Source: an uncultured Pseudomonadota bacterium (GTDB taxonomy: Bacteria > Pseudomonadota > Alphaproteobacteria > RF32 > CAG-239). Taken from it: a stretch of 64,000 nt of DNA. Location of the stretch: positions 7,338 through 71,337 of the forward strand of contig CADCCF010000002.1 of NCBI GenBank assembly GCA_902799835.1, read 5' to 3'. The position numbers and the translations under genes are program-made. Each line of letters starts with the position of its first letter. Positions within the stretch are counted from its first letter, which is position 1. A model generated the notes under the pieces. It made no database searches. It was not told where the DNA came from and saw only the letters and a list, made by a program, of their open reading frames with translations. Below, piece after piece: positions 1-6,411 of this stretch.

Positions 1-194
1 CGCTTAGTGTTGTTTTCGCCGTTTGGAGCCACTTCTGCCTGAGGAAAGCGTTCCAAAATCATATCGCGCATTCGTTCAGCCGTACGGCGCGATACATTAA
101 ATCTTTGTTGAATATCTTTTAATGACACGCCATCGCGTCCCGATTGCATCCAAATTGCTAAATCCAGTAAATCATGCGCTTTTTCATAAGCCAT
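1..194 (-). CDS. N-terminal 64 aa of a winged-HTH (HTH_11/DeoR-like, the class that fronts WYL-domain regulators) transcriptional regulator. The gene runs off the window start.
   Basis: Minus-strand ATG at 194-192 with SD-like AAGGGGG about 6 nt upstream. Translation is MAYEKAHDLLDLAIWMQSGRDGVSLKDIQQRFNVSRRTAERMRDMILERFPQAEVAPNGENNTK. The pattern LLxLxxxLxxxxxGxSxxDLxxRFxVSxRTxxRDxxxL is typical of this HTH class. It is absent from the ORF track because it has no stop inside the window. Confidence 0.5.
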   Translation of the reverse strand, partial: MAYEKAHDLLDLAIWMQSGRDGVSLKDIQQRFNVSRRTAERMRDMILERFPQAEVAPNGENNTK

Positions 195-312: not shown

Positions 313-1284
313 ATGACAATCGTAACGCAAAATTTTAACCCGCCGCTTAAAGTTTGTTTGGGCAACGAAAAGTATTATACTGAAATAGAATCGCGCCAAT
401 GGGAAACAGAAGATAAAGGAGATTTTGTCGCAACAATTCAAAACTTGGGCTATATCGGGAACCGCCAAATTGAAGAGGTTTGGAAACATTACCATAACGA
501 ATATTATATCAGCAACTATGGTTATATTGTAAAAATTGCTAAAGAGGATGCCGAAATTGCCGATATTATAATACCTGACATATTAAAAAATGCTGATGAA
601 AATTCATCCGGTGTGCGTTGGCTCGATTTCTTAGAAGAAGTTAAGTTGTTGTTTCGCCGGAATGCTTATGTGCCTAAAAATCGAGAAAATTCAGGCTGTC
701 AAATTTGTCTTAACATTACCGGAAAAACTGCAGAATATGATATTCATAAGTTGGTAGCACGGTTTTTCTTAAAGAAACCGGAAGATTATGCTAAGCATAG
801 CTATGTTGTCCACCATATTGATAATAATTCGTATAACAACAGTGTGACTAATTTAATTTATCTGAAAGCGGAGACGCATAAGGGTAATCAACATAAAATT
901 TATCATCCGATGTCTCATTCAGGTAAAAAAATTAAAATGAAAAAAATAGTTTTAGACACCGAAACAACGGGATTTTATCCCTTAAAAGGAGATAGAATTG
1001 TTGAAATCGGGGCACTGGAGTTGGATGAAAATGATTGCCCGACCGGACAAACATTTCATACTTACATCAATCCGGAGTGTGAAGTATCGGAAGAAGCCGT
1101 AAAAATACACGGATTAACCAACAATTTTTTAAAAGATTATCCGACTTTCGTTGATATAAAAGACGAATTTTTGCGCTTTATTGAGGGCAAAGCCTTAATT
1201 GCACATAATCTTTCCTTTGATTTAGGATTTTTAGAGCATGAATTAGGTTTCAATTTGCCAAACAAAATGATTGATACCTTGTAA
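313..1284 (+). CDS. Fusion protein: NUMOD4 motif plus HNH_3 (phage/homing-endonuclease-type HNH) N-terminal half, DnaQ-like DEDD 3'-5' exonuclease C-terminal half. The reading frame is cut by an in-frame TAA at 1282-1284.
   Basis: SD AAGGAG 7 nt upstream of ATG 313. NUMOD4-like EEVWKHYHNEYYISNYGYIVKIA. HNH_3-like YDIHKLVARFFLKKPEDYAKHSYVVHHIDNNSYNNSVTNLIYLKAETHKGNQH. Exo I is IVLDTETTGF and Exo II is LIAHNLSFDLGFL. Confidence 0.6.
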   Translation: MTIVTQNFNPPLKVCLGNEKYYTEIESRQWETEDKGDFVATIQNLGYIGNRQIEEVWKHYHNEYYISNYGYIVKIAKEDAEIADIIIPDILKNADENSSGVRWLDFLEEVKLLFRRNAYVPKNRENSGCQICLNITGKTAEYDIHKLVARFFLKKPEDYAKHSYVVHHIDNNSYNNSVTNLIYLKAETHKGNQHKIYHPMSHSGKKIKMKKIVLDTETTGFYPLKGDRIVEIGALELDENDCPTGQTFHTYINPECEVSEEAVKIHGLTNNFLKDYPTFVDIKDEFLRFIEGKALIAHNLSFDLGFLEHELGFNLPNKMIDTL

Positions 1285-1431
1285 ATAGCAAAAAAATCTT
1301 TTCCCGATACTATATGTTCCTTGGATGCACTTTGCAAAATATTCAAAATAAATCCAAAAGCTAAAAATGCTCAAGGCGCATTGCTTGATGTTATGTGCTT
1401 GGCAGAAGTTTATCAAAAATTGGCAAAATAA
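1285..1431 (+). pseudogene. In-frame continuation (48 codons) of the DnaQ-like exonuclease domain after the TAA stop. It contains Exo III-like QGALLDVMCLAEVY with the catalytic His replaced by Gln. The 313..1431 gene is therefore a likely pseudogene or recoded gene.
   Basis: Same frame as 313..1284. The sequence ...MIDTL*IAKKSFPDTICSLDALCKIFKINPKAKNAQGALLDVMCLAEVYQKLAK* matches the canonical C-terminal part of DnaQ-type domains (DTLxLAKKxFP...LDALC...HGALxDAxxxAxVY). Confidence 0.5.
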
Positions 1432-1490: not shown

Positions 1491-2444
1491 ATGACTGGGA
1501 AATTTGATGTAACCAAATGCTTTGCAGATGATAGCGTAAACAAGCAAAAAGGAAAGTTTTGGGAAAACTTTCATAATCTAGATATAGAAAAATGGAAAGA
1601 AGATAAAAGAAAAATCTACTACGATAATAAATATTGTGATAAAGATGCTCTACCAGATCCCGATGCAACTAGCAAAAGTTTATATGATATACATCAAACA
1701 TTATGGAACCTTCAAAGTGAAAAATTTAACATTTCCGAAGTAATTCCTAACCCTAAAAAAGATTGTGAACTAATAATTAAAGAAAAGGATATTCATTTGG
1801 GTAGTGATTCCATAATGAGTATTTATTGGCATTGGGCTGGAAACAAAGTGCCGTTTAGCACAATGCAAAAACTTATTGAAAAAATAGGTAGTAGTATTCA
1901 AGAAAGAAAGGAATACAACGAACTTAAAAAAGAAATGAAAGAAAAAGGCTGTGATACAGAAAAATATTTACCAAACCAATTAAAAAATTTTATTTATCTA
2001 TATCTAAAAAAAGCCAATACAATTGGTGGATTTGTTGTTTTTCCAAAACATGATAAAAATATTAATGGTCGCAGAGGTATCTCTGCTAAAATACGAGATC
2101 GTTTTGACTTAACTCTTGAGTGTATAAAAAGAGGATATGAAAAAATTTTTGATGAAAACGACCTAAATAACCCTCTAGCTGATGTTCTAAAAGCTGATCA
2201 AGAATTTTTCAAAATGTTTGAATCTTTTGATAATTACATAAATTTCTTTTGCTTAAATTCTTGGATAGAAGATGGTCATGTTTTAAGCTTAATTGATAAC
2301 CAACACTTAGATAATTGGGATTTTAATAACGGTGAGCCTCTTCCGACAAAAGATAATTGGTGGACGTTTTATAAAAATATAATGAGCCGCCTTGATGCTC
2401 GTAATAAAGCTATTCAAGATCTATTTCCGGAGGAAAATAAATGA
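1491..2444 (+). CDS. Hypothetical 317-aa protein with no recognisable family. Second gene of the cassette.
   Basis: Long ORF with SD AAGGAG 7 nt upstream, 60 bp after the preceding gene. Its end overlaps the next start by 4 nt (ATGA). Confidence 0.6.
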   Translation: MTGKFDVTKCFADDSVNKQKGKFWENFHNLDIEKWKEDKRKIYYDNKYCDKDALPDPDATSKSLYDIHQTLWNLQSEKFNISEVIPNPKKDCELIIKEKDIHLGSDSIMSIYWHWAGNKVPFSTMQKLIEKIGSSIQERKEYNELKKEMKEKGCDTEKYLPNQLKNFIYLYLKKANTIGGFVVFPKHDKNINGRRGISAKIRDRFDLTLECIKRGYEKIFDENDLNNPLADVLKADQEFFKMFESFDNYINFFCLNSWIEDGHVLSLIDNQHLDNWDFNNGEPLPTKDNWWTFYKNIMSRLDARNKAIQDLFPEENK

Positions 2445-2935
2445 AATTTATAAAAATACTCGGCAAAAGCCTCTGGTTTGTAATAAAGCTCGCCTTTAAG
2501 ATTATCAAATTGCCTTTTGTTATTTTGATTTTCTTAGGTGGCGCCTCAAGCGGTGCAACTAGTGATGAAGCAACAATCAGCGATTATAATACCGGCAGAA
2601 CTTTATATAAAATAAAAGACGATCGTGTTGACGAATATGATACCGGGCGGACATTGTATAAAATTAATGGTAATTACTTTGAAGATGACTATAACGGTCG
2701 AACCATATATAAGCTCAATAATGATTATATTGAAGAGTATTCCAACGGTCGTAGTTTGTATAAAATAAAGGACAACTATATAGAAGAATATAGCACAGGA
2801 AACACATTGTACAGGATAAGAGATAATTACATTGAAGATTATAGCACCGGCAGAACCTTGTATAAAGTCGATGGCAAAATAACCGCATGGGTTATCATAA
2901 CCATTCTCATTTACGAAGGTATTTTGGAAAGATAA
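2441..2935 (+). CDS. Small membrane-anchored protein made of six tandem ~17-aa repeats with consensus Y-S/D-T-G-R-T-L-Y-K-I-x-D-N-Y-I-E-E.
   Basis: SD GGAGGA upstream and a 4-nt overlap with the upstream stop. N-terminal hydrophobic helix LPFVILIFLGG. A second hydrophobic stretch AWVIITILIY lies at the C-terminus. Confidence 0.6.
   Translation: MKFIKILGKSLWFVIKLAFKIIKLPFVILIFLGGASSGATSDEATISDYNTGRTLYKIKDDRVDEYDTGRTLYKINGNYFEDDYNGRTIYKLNNDYIEEYSNGRSLYKIKDNYIEEYSTGNTLYRIRDNYIEDYSTGRTLYKVDGKITAWVIITILIYEGILER
2581..2880 (+). repeat. Imperfect tandem ~51-bp coding repeats (x6) inside CDS 2441..2935.
   Basis: Repeated TGRTLYKI / NGRTIYKL / NGRSLYKI / TGNTLYRI / TGRTLYKV peptide units are visible in translation and as DNA periodicity. 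Confidence 0.55.
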
Positions 2936-3092: not shown

Positions 3093-3122
3093 CAGAACTT
3101 GCATGAAAGTTCTGCTTTTTGT
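3093..3122 (+). terminator. Terminator-like hairpin plus U-run inside the thrS-like leader. It is a possible attenuator. A second GC hairpin lies at 3149-3164.
   Basis: cagaactt-gcatga-aagttctg followed by cttttt. The second hairpin is caccgc-ttag-gcggtg. Confidence 0.35.
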
Positions 3123-3237
3123 GTTTCTTTAACCTTTACCGTAACCACCACCGCTTAGGCGGTGATATTTCTTTATTTCTGGATTTATATCCATACAAGT
3201 AATTTAAAGTTTAACAATTTTCGTAAAGGTTAGAAAA

Positions 3238-4512
3238 ATGAATAATAATATAGATGAAAAACAAAATATTTCCGAAAACGACCATCGTCGTATCGGTAAG
3301 GAACTGGACTTATTTTCTTTTAGTGATTATGTAGGATCCGGATTGGCTTTGTGGCATCCCAATGGCGCAATCATTAGAGGCGAAATAGAATCTTTTTGGA
3401 AAAAAGAACATCAAAAAGCCGGCTATAAATATGTCTATTCTCCGGTTGTCGGATTAAAACAGCTATGGGAAAAATCCGGTCATTTGGATCATTTTGCCGA
3501 CTGTATGTATCCGCCGATGGATATGTCCTTAAAGGATAAAGAAGAACAGGGGGCTTATTATGTTAAGCCGATGAGCTGTCCTTTTCATGTGGCAATTTAT
3601 AATGCTTCCGTACATTCATATAAAGAACTTCCGATTAAATATTGTGAACTTGGAAATGTTTATCGTTATGAAGCATCTGGCGGTCTGCAAGGACTATTGC
3701 GCGTTCGTTGCATTACGCAAGATGATGCGCATATTATCTGTCGTCAAGATCAGTTTATGGAAGAGCTTTCAAAGGTTTTGGACTTTGGTTTTGCTTTCAA
3801 TAAAGTCTTTGGCTATGATAAGTTTAAAGTATACTTTTCCATTCGTGATTTAAAAAACAAAAAGGATAAATATATTGAAAACGAGCCCGTTTGGCAAATG
3901 GCCGAGCAAGCGATAGAACAAGTCTTAAAAGACAAAAAACTTCCATATGATATAGATGTCGGAGGAGCAAAATTTTACGGACCGGCCATTGATGTCAAAG
4001 CCGTAGATGAAAATGGCAAGGAATGGCAATGTATGACGATTCAACTGGATATGAATTTGCCGGAAAAATGGGGAATGTCTTATATCGGTGAAGATGGTCA
4101 AAAGCACGTGCCGATTATGTTGCACCGCGCCATTTTAGGATCATTGGAGCGTTTTATCGGCGTATATTTGGAAAGATGCGAAGGTAAATTGCCGGTTTGG
4201 TTGTCACCGATTCAGGTCAAAATTTTACCGGTATCGGACAGGCACCAAGAACAAGCTCTGCAAATTCAAGAACAGCTACTGGCACAAGATATACGTGCTG
4301 AAGCTGATTTATCCAGCAATACGATTTCGTATCAAATCAGAAATGCGGTTAAAAAGAAAATTCCTTATGTTATTGTGATAGGAGACAAAGAAATTGAAAA
4401 TAATCATGTTTCTGTCAGATTGCGTAATGGTGAACAATTAGACGACATTCCGCTTGCTGATTTTATGAAACGTGTATCCGCAAAAATAAAAAACAAAAGT
4501 ATAGATTTGTAA
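3238..4512 (+). CDS. thrS: Threonyl-tRNA synthetase catalytic core plus anticodon-binding domain only (424 aa). The N-terminal TGS and editing domains are absent.
   Basis: Aligns with E. coli ThrRS from about residue 236 (DHRRIGKELDLF vs DHRKIGKQLDLY) through the C-terminus. Class II motifs are present: PMSCPFH, YRYEASGGLQGLLRVRCITQDDAHI and HRAILGSLERFIGVYLE. An in-frame upstream stop prevents N-terminal extension. Confidence 0.85.
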   Translation: MNNNIDEKQNISENDHRRIGKELDLFSFSDYVGSGLALWHPNGAIIRGEIESFWKKEHQKAGYKYVYSPVVGLKQLWEKSGHLDHFADCMYPPMDMSLKDKEEQGAYYVKPMSCPFHVAIYNASVHSYKELPIKYCELGNVYRYEASGGLQGLLRVRCITQDDAHIICRQDQFMEELSKVLDFGFAFNKVFGYDKFKVYFSIRDLKNKKDKYIENEPVWQMAEQAIEQVLKDKKLPYDIDVGGAKFYGPAIDVKAVDENGKEWQCMTIQLDMNLPEKWGMSYIGEDGQKHVPIMLHRAILGSLERFIGVYLERCEGKLPVWLSPIQVKILPVSDRHQEQALQIQEQLLAQDIRAEADLSSNTISYQIRNAVKKKIPYVIVIGDKEIENNHVSVRLRNGEQLDDIPLADFMKRVSAKIKNKSIDL

Positions 4513-5505: not shown

Positions 5506-6411
5506 ATGGTTAATATTATTGCCGCCGCCGTTGCCGCCGCTGTTAAGGAACGTCGTATAAGAGAGGAAGAACAAAGGCGATATAGAGAGGCTTTAAGAAT
5601 AGAAGAAGAAAGACGTCGTGAAGAAGAAAGACGTCGTGAAGAAGAAAGACGTCGTGAAGAAGAAAGACGTCGTGAAGAAGAGATTATTGATAAACAAAAG
5701 CGAAGGGCAGAAAATATAGCACGCAACCATCACAGGATATCAGATACGAATAACATCGGTGTAACAGATACGTCAATAACTTTTTTGGAAAAATATTACC
5801 ATCAGAAAGACGAATTATTAAGTGCCATAGTTTCTTCGGACGGCTATGAAAGTAAATGCGCCGACGGTTCGTCCATATTTTTTGGCAAAAATTACTACGT
5901 ACATAAGCTTACAAATGGAGTGCAGAGAATTTATGAAGACCGTGGAAGTTTGGTAAGACTTTGTCGAGAAGATATGCCGGATGGCCGGTCAAGAGTTTAC
6001 GGTGCTAAAGATGAGCATGGTACGCAGTTCACGGATGAAGATTGTTTCTTGCTGTATGAGTGTGATGCGAGCGGAAATTATAAACGCTATGGTGAAAAAG
6101 GCAAATACGGAAAATGGACGAGAACGGACGAAGTTGTGGAAGATGGTAAAATTAATACTTCTGAAATTCTGAATGATAATCAAATTTTTGCATATGAAGA
6201 ACTGAAAAAAGCCATTGAACGCGACGAAGTCGGATTGGATATGTTGAAAATTAAAAAAGAAATTTTACGTAAGAAACTTGGAGGTAAGACAGGTCAAACT
6301 GCAGATTCAAGAACAGGCGAAAAAACAGAAGAACATAAACAAACGGCAAAGACACATATTGATATTACCAAAGTTGTAATGAAAGTAGGGCGAGGACAGA
6401 ACATAAAGTAA
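5506..6411 (+). CDS. Hypothetical 301-aa protein with an N-terminal Ala-rich segment, an (EERRRE)x4 charged repeat and an uncharacterised C-terminal domain.
   Basis: Strong promoter and SD. The ORF ends before a long palindromic terminator. Confidence 0.6.
   Translation: MVNIIAAAVAAAVKERRIREEEQRRYREALRIEEERRREEERRREEERRREEERRREEEIIDKQKRRAENIARNHHRISDTNNIGVTDTSITFLEKYYHQKDELLSAIVSSDGYESKCADGSSIFFGKNYYVHKLTNGVQRIYEDRGSLVRLCREDMPDGRSRVYGAKDEHGTQFTDEDCFLLYECDASGNYKRYGEKGKYGKWTRTDEVVEDGKINTSEILNDNQIFAYEELKKAIERDEVGLDMLKIKKEILRKKLGGKTGQTADSRTGEKTEEHKQTAKTHIDITKVVMKVGRGQNIK
5605..5676 (+). repeat. Four perfect tandem copies of an 18-bp unit gaagaaagacgtcgtgaa (EERRRE) inside CDS 5506..6411.
   Basis: Exact repeats read directly at 5605-5622, 5623-5640, 5641-5658 and 5659-5676. 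Confidence 0.9.

Follow-up and report, generated by a model that had tools for sequence, protein, structure and literature searches.

A probable recent truncation in a gene joining a phage-type HNH domain to a short epsilon paralogue in a rumen alphaproteobacterium

At positions 313–1431 of a 64,000-nt stretch of DNA from an uncultured alphaproteobacterium (assembly GCA_902799835.1, contig CADCCF010000002.1, positions 7,338–71,337 of the forward strand; hereafter the window), a gene that joins an HNH-type domain to a DnaQ-type exonuclease domain is interrupted by an in-frame TAA and carries glutamine in place of the histidine of its Exo III motif. Do these two defects record one inactivation, a sequencing error or a domain kept for something other than catalysis? 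Taken as a whole, the best explanation, which we consider very probable, is that window 313–1431 holds a conserved two-domain gene in a recently truncated allelic form. Intact, this gene encodes 372 amino acids and joins an HNH endonuclease domain of phage type to what we denote epsilon-like (eL), a short paralogue of epsilon, the proofreading subunit of DNA polymerase III, as found in Alphaproteobacteria. Judged from the alignments, the stop and the histidine loss are two unlinked events, the latter old and shared across the family. By itself the stop codon is an ordinary strain-level lesion in one rumen alphaproteobacterial lineage; the gene family is more interesting than the lesion. Loci and proteins used for comparison carry the prefixes L and P.

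A two-domain gene with a premature stop

The open reading frame (ORF) opens at an ATG at position 313, with AAGGAG just 5′ of it. Translation of 313–1434 reads ...NKMIDTL, a stop, IAKKSFPDTICSLDALCKIFKINPKAKNAQGALLDVMCLAEVYQKLAK and a second stop. The first of these, codon 324, lies exactly where the initial annotation had placed it and truncates the exonuclease-like domain before Exo III; 48 open codons then lead to the natural TAA at 1429–1431, with neither a further stop nor an indel on the way. The gene is laid out as follows.

313–1284, plus strand: truncated ORF, 323 codons and the premature TAA, covering the HNH-type N-domain in full and some 70% of eL
313–936, plus strand: N-domain of a phage-type HNH endonuclease family (amino acids 1–208), with the motif VHHIDNNSYNNSVTNLIYLKAETH...H and every family-invariant residue present
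937–1431, plus strand: eL domain (amino acids 209–372 of the ancestral protein), without the C-terminal clamp- or alpha-binding tail
955–963, plus strand: predicted catalytic site Exo I, D215 and E217
1219–1221, plus strand: predicted catalytic site Exo II, D303
1282–1284, plus strand: premature TAA, codon 324, aligned with CAA (Gln) in L100 and GAA (Glu) in L001, L002, L003 and L011 (DNA alignments A2 and A7)
1285–1431, plus strand: 48 codons no longer translated and the natural stop, an open frame with 0 indels
1372–1374, plus strand: Exo III position Q354 (CAA)
1387–1389, plus strand: predicted Exo III residue D359

Profile matches bear out the fusion that the initial annotation had read from the sequence. 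Pfam RNase_T (PF00929) matches amino acids 212–315 (E = 1.6e-24), PADLOC returns its DEDDh model (1.7e-35) and the N-terminal region of PDC-S48 (4e-30), and the N-terminal half matches HNH families in PHROG (below). The domain match, above threshold in hidden Markov model searches, together with the epsilon fold, predicted at high confidence, places eL in the DEDD/RNase_T exonuclease-fold superfamily (PF00929; TIGR00573 domain). The lineage allele would yield a 323-aa protein in which the HNH domain is whole and eL lacks its last two helices and Exo III.

Intact relatives are close. A protein search returned 372-aa homologues at 92% (P0001) and 82% (P0002) identity, and eight different intact variants of 372 aa, with Glu or Gln at the stop position, share the 90%-identity cluster with the 323-aa allele. 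Intact 372-aa orthologues reach 92–98% identity, and one of them, in the rumen metagenome-assembled genome RUG10873 (L011), is syntenic, with equal neighbours on both sides. Relative to this orthologue and the eight variants, the window gene thus carries the premature stop that defines a pseudogene or truncated allele, while its whole N-domain argues against the gene being dead overall. No homologue was found that ends at the stop site and is followed by a separate downstream gene, the arrangement that would have made the stop a natural gene end.

The stop falls on a variable residue after DTL, where relatives have E, Q, A, I, V, D or L, and no close relative has a leucine codon there. The initial annotation had taken the site for the conserved leucine of a DTLxLAKK motif, lost through a change from TTA to TAA; the codon is GAA or CAA in homologues and CAA in the matching haplotype, and the DNA alignments exclude TTA (Leu) as the ancestral codon. 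Over the first 100 columns of the 210-nt alignment A7, near the site, L100 equals the window except for C/T at the stop and one synonymous AAC/AAT difference upstream; the identical stretch covers the downstream ATA-GCA...ACT-ATA codons, which set the window apart from the GAA alleles. Because L100 matches the window haplotype around the site apart from this C/T, a single C-to-T transition from CAA (Gln) to TAA is the most parsimonious, and most likely, origin of the stop.

The lesion appears young, in line with one of the options that the initial annotation had offered, because no further stop or indel lies downstream and the syntenic gene of L011 is intact. By Nei–Gojobori counts, the window and L011 differ in eL by 5 nonsynonymous and 15 synonymous substitutions upstream of the stop (ratio of nonsynonymous to synonymous rates, dN/dS, 0.07) and by 6 and 3 downstream of it (dN/dS 0.50; Fisher p = 0.048, with nine substitutions downstream). 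In intact-gene pairs the segment after the stop site has a dN/dS of 0.22 and is thus less constrained than the rest of eL even there. Evidence for relaxed selection after the stop is weak, as expected of a recent event.

The HNH domain and the origin of the fusion

The N-terminal half of the protein matches PHROG 959 ‘HNH endonuclease’ (5.7e-13), PHROG 59 (8.4e-11) and the PADLOC HEase model (9.3e-7). All residues that are invariant in 20 family members are kept in the window (C132, H167, H168, D170, N171, N172, N175, N176, N180, H189 and H198; alignment A9). An AlphaFold2 model has strands at 164–168 and 181–185 followed by helices, with a predicted local distance difference test score of about 60–80, and the predicted beta-beta-alpha core bears conserved His/Asn/His residues (H167, H168, N176, N180 and H189). 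By these features the N-domain belongs to a phage-type HNH endonuclease family and has putative nuclease activity.

The two halves of the gene also exist apart. About 15 clusters of roughly 205-aa proteins match the N-terminal half alone and end at YHPMSH. One such stand-alone HNH gene (L004) lies in a prophage-like region, adjoining a Septknot-domain gene and a DnaB-type helicase gene, and another (L007) lies in a chromosomal context beside a Septknot-domain gene. L100 encodes a 201-aa HNH protein and a 164-aa eL protein in separate genes 23 nt apart, within a prophage-like replication module with ParB-methylase, terminase, GIY-YIG, DnaB_C and WYL genes; its eL gene is 94.5% nucleotide-identical to the eL domain of the window, and the internal Met209 of the fusion (MKKIVLDTETTG) corresponds to the eL start codon. 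Because L100 keeps HNH and eL as adjacent separate genes, the fusion appears to be a join of two neighbouring phage-module genes. The reverse is found in L013 and L014, where the N-domain is intact and eL is reduced to a relic of about 27 codons (KKNCLDTQTRGFHPLKGDKIVEKCAL), an independent loss.

Some further observations concern these genes. A gene of about 95 codons lies immediately 5′ of the stand-alone HNH gene in L004 (5687–5986), L007 (5701–5988) and L100 (4073–4354); it encodes a Septknot domain (PF19647) in the first two, and in L100 its 93-aa product, for which no Pfam hit is recorded, contains DWDAD repeats. The two genes thus look like a conserved pair, of which the window lacks the 5′ member. 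The domain junction of the window (913–945) contains two A7 runs (GGTAAAAAAATTAAAATGAAAAAAATA), where slippage might contribute to fusion or split variants; among related loci, L100 is split and P0244 altered (it ends ...SGKRIKSLDAM) here or close by. The fusion genes of L001 and L011 differ at 27 nucleotides in the HNH half and at 0 in the 492-nt eL half, which points to a mosaic produced by intragenic recombination between alleles. The eL half of the window is closest to the prophage-like L100 allele.

These arrangements bear on whether the truncation is tolerated or even favoured, with eL a dispensable accessory and the 323-aa protein acting like the stand-alone HNH homologues. The window allele resembles such natural HNH-only forms and retains all invariant N-domain residues, and the independent loss in L013/L014 and the separate genes of L100 likewise fit a dispensable eL; its HNH protein may still be functional if the partial domain is not destabilising. 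However, that partial domain of 115 residues may misfold and destabilise the protein, eL is strongly constrained in intact fusions, and eight distinct intact variants stand against one truncated allele. We regard this reading as possible, although we lean against it.

An epsilon-like family that has lost the Exo III histidine

Aligned with Escherichia coli epsilon (PDB 1j53), Gln354 of the intact fusion lies opposite His162 and Asp359 opposite Asp167. The change from His to Gln seen by the initial annotation is thus confirmed, unlike its leucine codon. His162 is the general base in epsilon (PMC3439924). The DEDDh pentad (D12, E14, D103, H162 and D167 in E. coli numbering) is therefore incomplete in the window, reading D-E-D-Q-D. 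Every intact close relative has Gln at this position, and more distant fusions carry Thr (in L003) or Ser (in P0017, the ankyrin fusion), both with the Exo III Asp changed to Asn as well. The His-less eL domain of intact fusions is under purifying selection: in intact genes its dN/dS is 0.12–0.14, a constraint on a par with that on the HNH domain (0.10–0.11).

Although eL is 52–56% identical to alphaproteobacterial DnaQ, it falls outside the epsilon equivalogs. P0001 scores 182 bits against TIGR01406 (equivalog cut-off 222.7) and 178.1 bits against NF004316 (cut-off 196), and it ends at position 168 of the 231 in the TIGR01406 profile, right after the AEVY helix; the C-terminal 63 positions, with the segment that binds the clamp and the PHP domain of alpha, are absent. 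A canonical dnaQ was not found within the window, where a tblastn search with P0037 matched 937–1422 only. P0353 is a canonical 227-aa DnaQ (DEDHD; TIGR01406 score 273.6) whose longest contig and the scaffold that bears this locus are both 549,809 nt; it thus probably sits on the scaffold of this locus, and the organism's real proofreader is very probably encoded elsewhere in the genome.

A profile built from six eL domains retrieved more than 100 clusters of stand-alone 164–190-aa proteins at 230–305 bits, below which scores fall to canonical 219–234-aa DnaQ at no more than 206 bits. All 16 canonical proteins examined are D-E-D-H-D. By contrast, of the 106 short proteins in which the Exo III His position is occupied, 101 lack the histidine (81 have Asn), and most also lack the Exo I Asp, having N, T or Q there; NEDND is the commonest pattern. 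Common to the eL proteins are a small deletion (ELP-NK) and a C terminus just past the AEVY helix, with no clamp- and alpha-binding tail (alignments A5 and A8), and neighbour-joining analysis split canonical DnaQ from the short proteins and fusions with a bootstrap of 97/100. We define the eL clade by the AEVY end, the ELP-NK deletion, the missing Exo III His and the grouping apart from canonical DnaQ; the window domain shows all four.

On this comparison, eL is most aptly seen as a family of pseudo-exonucleases that descends from the epsilon of Alphaproteobacteria, and the window clade (DEDQD) appears to be its least eroded branch. In the intact fusion the domain retains the epsilon fold and the four metal-binding carboxylates and has lost the general-base His and the tether to polymerase and clamp. 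The initial annotation had linked the stop and the missing histidine in a single inactivation, which the His-less intact relatives and short proteins contradict; its other suggestion, a domain kept for a non-catalytic role, describes the family best, and does not extend to the TAA, a separate and lineage-specific event. The proteins are annotated as ‘DNA polymerase III subunit epsilon’ in more than 100 sequence clusters from host-associated Alphaproteobacteria. Neither HNH–DnaQ fusions nor inactive stand-alone DnaQ paralogues were found described in the searchable literature; a phage HNH joined to a catalytically dead epsilon paralogue is seemingly a new architectural variant, and the sizeable family seemingly undescribed. 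A scan of IMG/VR with the fusion protein gave no match, and one with the eL profile gave only relatives at no more than 47% identity, which are uninformative.

Might eL still be catalytically active as an exonuclease, with a different general base? On this reading, nicking and resection would be combined in the intact fusion, and a toxic or costly activity would be lost through the stop. Retention of D215, E217, D303 and D359 in the window clade, the confidently predicted epsilon fold and the fusion to an endonuclease domain would suit such an enzyme, but the residue that it lacks is the general base of epsilon, sister members have lost further catalytic residues (the Exo III Asp in L003 and P0017), and in most short eL proteins the Exo I Asp is replaced by N, T or Q. 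We consider this unlikely.

Reality of the stop codon

The exact 323-aa product occurs on at least three contigs, in assemblies from NCBI, ENA and Logan that different assemblers produced. L010, which carries the TAA, equals the window at 100% identity over 5.6 kb. L009, a 549.8-kb scaffold that also carries it, differs from the window by 1 single-nucleotide polymorphism (SNP) in the first 6.1 kb, by 15 SNPs in the next 5.1 kb and by an additional repeat-length difference of about 390 bp. Because these 16 SNPs and the repeat-length variant separate the two, L009 is an independent consensus and not that of the window itself. The stop is thus shared by at least two non-identical assemblies, and an error is unlikely.

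An error in sequencing, the initial annotation's option, or in assembly would mean that the organism really encodes an unbroken 372-aa protein; in favour of an error are a stop one base away from CAA, a downstream frame that is wholly open and an L010 contig that may derive from the same reads. It fails to explain why L009, with its own SNPs and repeat length, and the products of different assemblers carry the same codon, at a site outside any homopolymer; we judge it very improbable. Decoding of the TAA by programmed read-through or an altered genetic code, for which the open downstream frame could be cited, has a negligible chance of being right, given that TAA is the prevailing stop in the window, terminating 30 of 46 long ORFs, the natural stop of the fusion gene is TAA in all five loci aligned, homologues have a sense codon at the site and ARAGORN found only tRNA-Pro and tRNA-Leu in the window, with no suppressor tRNA. 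Stop usage and the tRNA scan likewise ruled out an altered code or suppressor tRNA as candidates in their own right.

The neighbouring genes

The fusion gene (313–1431) is the first of three co-directional genes, followed by a DUF6994 gene (1491–2444) and a gene for a 164-aa protein (2441–2935). The remaining features of the locus are these.

1–194, minus strand: 5′ part (first 64 codons, at 194–3, helix-turn-helix (HTH) region) of a divergent WYL-family regulator gene, cut by the window edge
251–263, unstranded: palindrome GTCAttttttGAC, candidate operator, in the intergenic region between the WYL and fusion genes
1491–2444, plus strand: DUF6994 gene, 317 aa, second in the operon (PF22507, E = 9.6e-41)
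2441–2935, plus strand: gene for a 164-aa protein that has a hydrophobic segment at each terminus and about 7 tandem repeats of about 15 aa (Y..TGRTLYKI.DNYIEDY), its start overlapping the DUF6994 stop (ATGA)
3093–3164, plus strand: two terminator-like hairpins (3093–3114 and 3149–3164; consensus scans only) that close the three-gene unit before a short thrS

The full WYL regulator, 323 aa in L009 and L011, has the architecture HTH-WYL-WCX (PF13280 WYL and PF25583 WCX), and its L001 orthologue matches the PADLOC WYL model (E = 5.7e-21). The counterpart of the palindrome GTCAttttttGAC is kept as GTCATATTTTGAC in the 82%-diverged L003, where the flanking intergenic sequence is otherwise diverged (alignment A2); the palindrome is a candidate operator.

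For DUF6994 the Pfam curators predict a beta-beta-alpha-Me fold, with kinship to type IV restriction enzymes and to HNH proteins (PMC11701544). The window and L011 (9190–10095) proteins are 46% identical, whereas the flanking genes are 85–94% identical and the genomes otherwise about 89%; nucleotide homology breaks at the DUF6994 start codon and resumes about 90 nt before the gene end. This divergence hot spot suggests cassette replacement or diversifying selection. Such hot spots are typical of genes in genetic conflict. The 164-aa protein matches no Pfam, NCBIfam or PADLOC family and has a 48%-identity homologue at the equivalent position in L018.

Related cassettes, at chromosomal positions unrelated to that of the window, pair eL with DUF6994 in other ways. 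L018 and L019 carry an Ank–eL fusion (ankyrin to eL), DUF6994, a 158-aa homologue of the repeat protein and WYL; L015 carries eL, an ankyrin protein, DUF6994 and WYL; and L016 carries eL, an ankyrin protein and DUF6994. Together with the window clade, eL adjoins DUF6994 in four genomic contexts, with WYL adjacent in three. A metagenome scan with DUF6994 (80 loci) returned mostly distant short-form proteins of about 30% identity, among which eL appeared only in L022, whose contig is identical to that of L016, and as a weak match in L061; most close loci end just upstream of DUF6994. The link between eL and DUF6994 holds only for the long-form alphaproteobacterial DUF6994 subfamily. IMG/VR gave no match to DUF6994.

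In L025 (6169–7899; syntenic with L018) and L027 (172–1896), the slot before DUF6994 is taken by a 576-aa protein with DnaB_C-like and AAA domains, in which the Walker A GKT of the DnaB_C-like domain has degenerated to RHAPTDS or VYPYSDN; it would be a second ‘dead replisome part’ in this cassette type. Two 226-aa proteins, in L016 (2271–2951) and L100 (7253–7933), look by eye like degenerate DnaB_C proteins; Pfam gave no family for the former.

Beyond the hairpins, the threonyl-tRNA synthetase gene (3238–4512) encodes only 424 aa (426 aa in L011, 94% identity). Its product covers TIGR00418 positions 160–564, the catalytic core and anticodon-binding domain, without the N-terminal TGS and editing domains. 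The repeat-length polymorphism falls in the gene at 5506–6411 (about 5781–6153), which in L009 is about 390 bp longer and encodes 432 rather than 301 aa.

Comparison with known systems

Set against DnaQ epsilon (TIGR01406, PDB 1j53), eL has Gln for the general-base His, lacks the last ~60 clamp- and alpha-binding residues, scores under the equivalog cut-off and is here fused to an HNH domain, with the canonical DnaQ apparently separate in the genome. The N-domain resembles phage HNH_3-type, homing-endonuclease-like nucleases (PF13392, PHROG 959) in its HH-x-D...NN...NL...H motif, its predicted beta-beta-alpha core and its stand-alone homologues in prophage replication modules (L004 and L100). 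It differs from them in the long insertion that separates its HNH core from the N-terminal EEVWKHY..YISNYGY motif, in a sub-threshold Pfam score, in having no detected NUMOD or AP2 DNA-binding tail and in the added C-terminal eL.

Dead DEDD-fold domains that bind nucleic acid are known from the EXO-like domain of Exuperantia (5l80) and from Maelstrom (4ybg); these are eukaryotic and bind RNA, whereas eL is a bacterial epsilon paralogue. PolA2 and PolB2 polymerases contain inactivated DnaQ-like domains (PMC12926913), which are internal to the polymerase, unlike the free or fused eL. As in Cas2–DEDDh (8fy9), DinG with an N-terminal exonuclease (8zef) and PADLOC PDC-S48, a DEDDh-type domain is fused to another nucleic-acid enzyme; unlike eL, however, those domains retain the His and are active, and the PDC-S48 match is confined to the exonuclease part. 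The divergent HTH-WYL-WCX gene beside nuclease-like genes recalls WYL-regulated cassettes (the DriD and PafBC DNA-damage regulons and BrxR/CapW-type defence regulators), a likeness of architecture and position and not of orthology to any characterised regulon.

A possible role for the cassette

Characterised WYL regulators of HTH-WYL-WCX architecture (DriD and PafBC) reportedly sense single-stranded DNA and switch on damage or defence genes, and regulators of this architecture typically respond to single-stranded DNA or infection signals. By analogy, the divergent regulator would probably control the three-gene unit. Nuclease chemistry would come from HNH and DUF6994, and the dead epsilon domain would bind DNA 3′ ends or a protein partner instead of hydrolysing. 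The likeliest account is thus a WYL-controlled nuclease cassette with a dead epsilon for binding or sensing, of which we infer regulation, nuclease activity, binding and a defence or damage role alike; the cassette may serve phage defence, prophage replication or competition, or damage processing.

Several observations weigh against parts of this picture. The Pfam HNH_3 match (amino acids 164–187) scores 19.5 bits, under the gathering score of 24.8. With all four carboxylates kept, a weak or differently catalysed exonuclease activity of eL is possible. The linkage of eL to DUF6994 is seen in few loci and is absent in the prophage-like L100, where eL lies in a replication module. PADLOC-DB v2 has no defence system that matches the cassette, only generic DEDDh, HEase and WYL models and the exonuclease part of PDC-S48; no PADLOC model matched DUF6994 or the 164-aa protein. 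As to the stop, assemblies from one library could formally share a consensus error, and the sample behind the window may have been re-assembled as L010. The relaxation signal against L011, nine substitutions in all, is gone against L100 (5 nonsynonymous and 7 synonymous downstream); the comparison of dN/dS on either side of the stop, proposed by the initial annotation, thus found its signal with one relative and not with the other.

A bolder version takes eL and the Walker-A-less DnaB-like protein as dead copies of host replisome parts that act as baits or sensors in a WYL-regulated DUF6994 cassette, coupled to HNH or DUF6994 effectors. Their targets would be phage proteins that hijack the replisome, or abnormal replication intermediates. 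Drawn from a handful of loci, this idea is doubtful; if true, it would be a bacterial ‘integrated decoy’ immune design made from a proofreading subunit.

For annotation, the window gene is to be flagged as truncated and its exonuclease-like part not to be named DnaQ or an active exonuclease. Should the dead proofreader prove to serve a conflict or DNA-damage system as sensor or adaptor, it would represent a new use of a core replisome part and would give DUF6994 a testable functional context.

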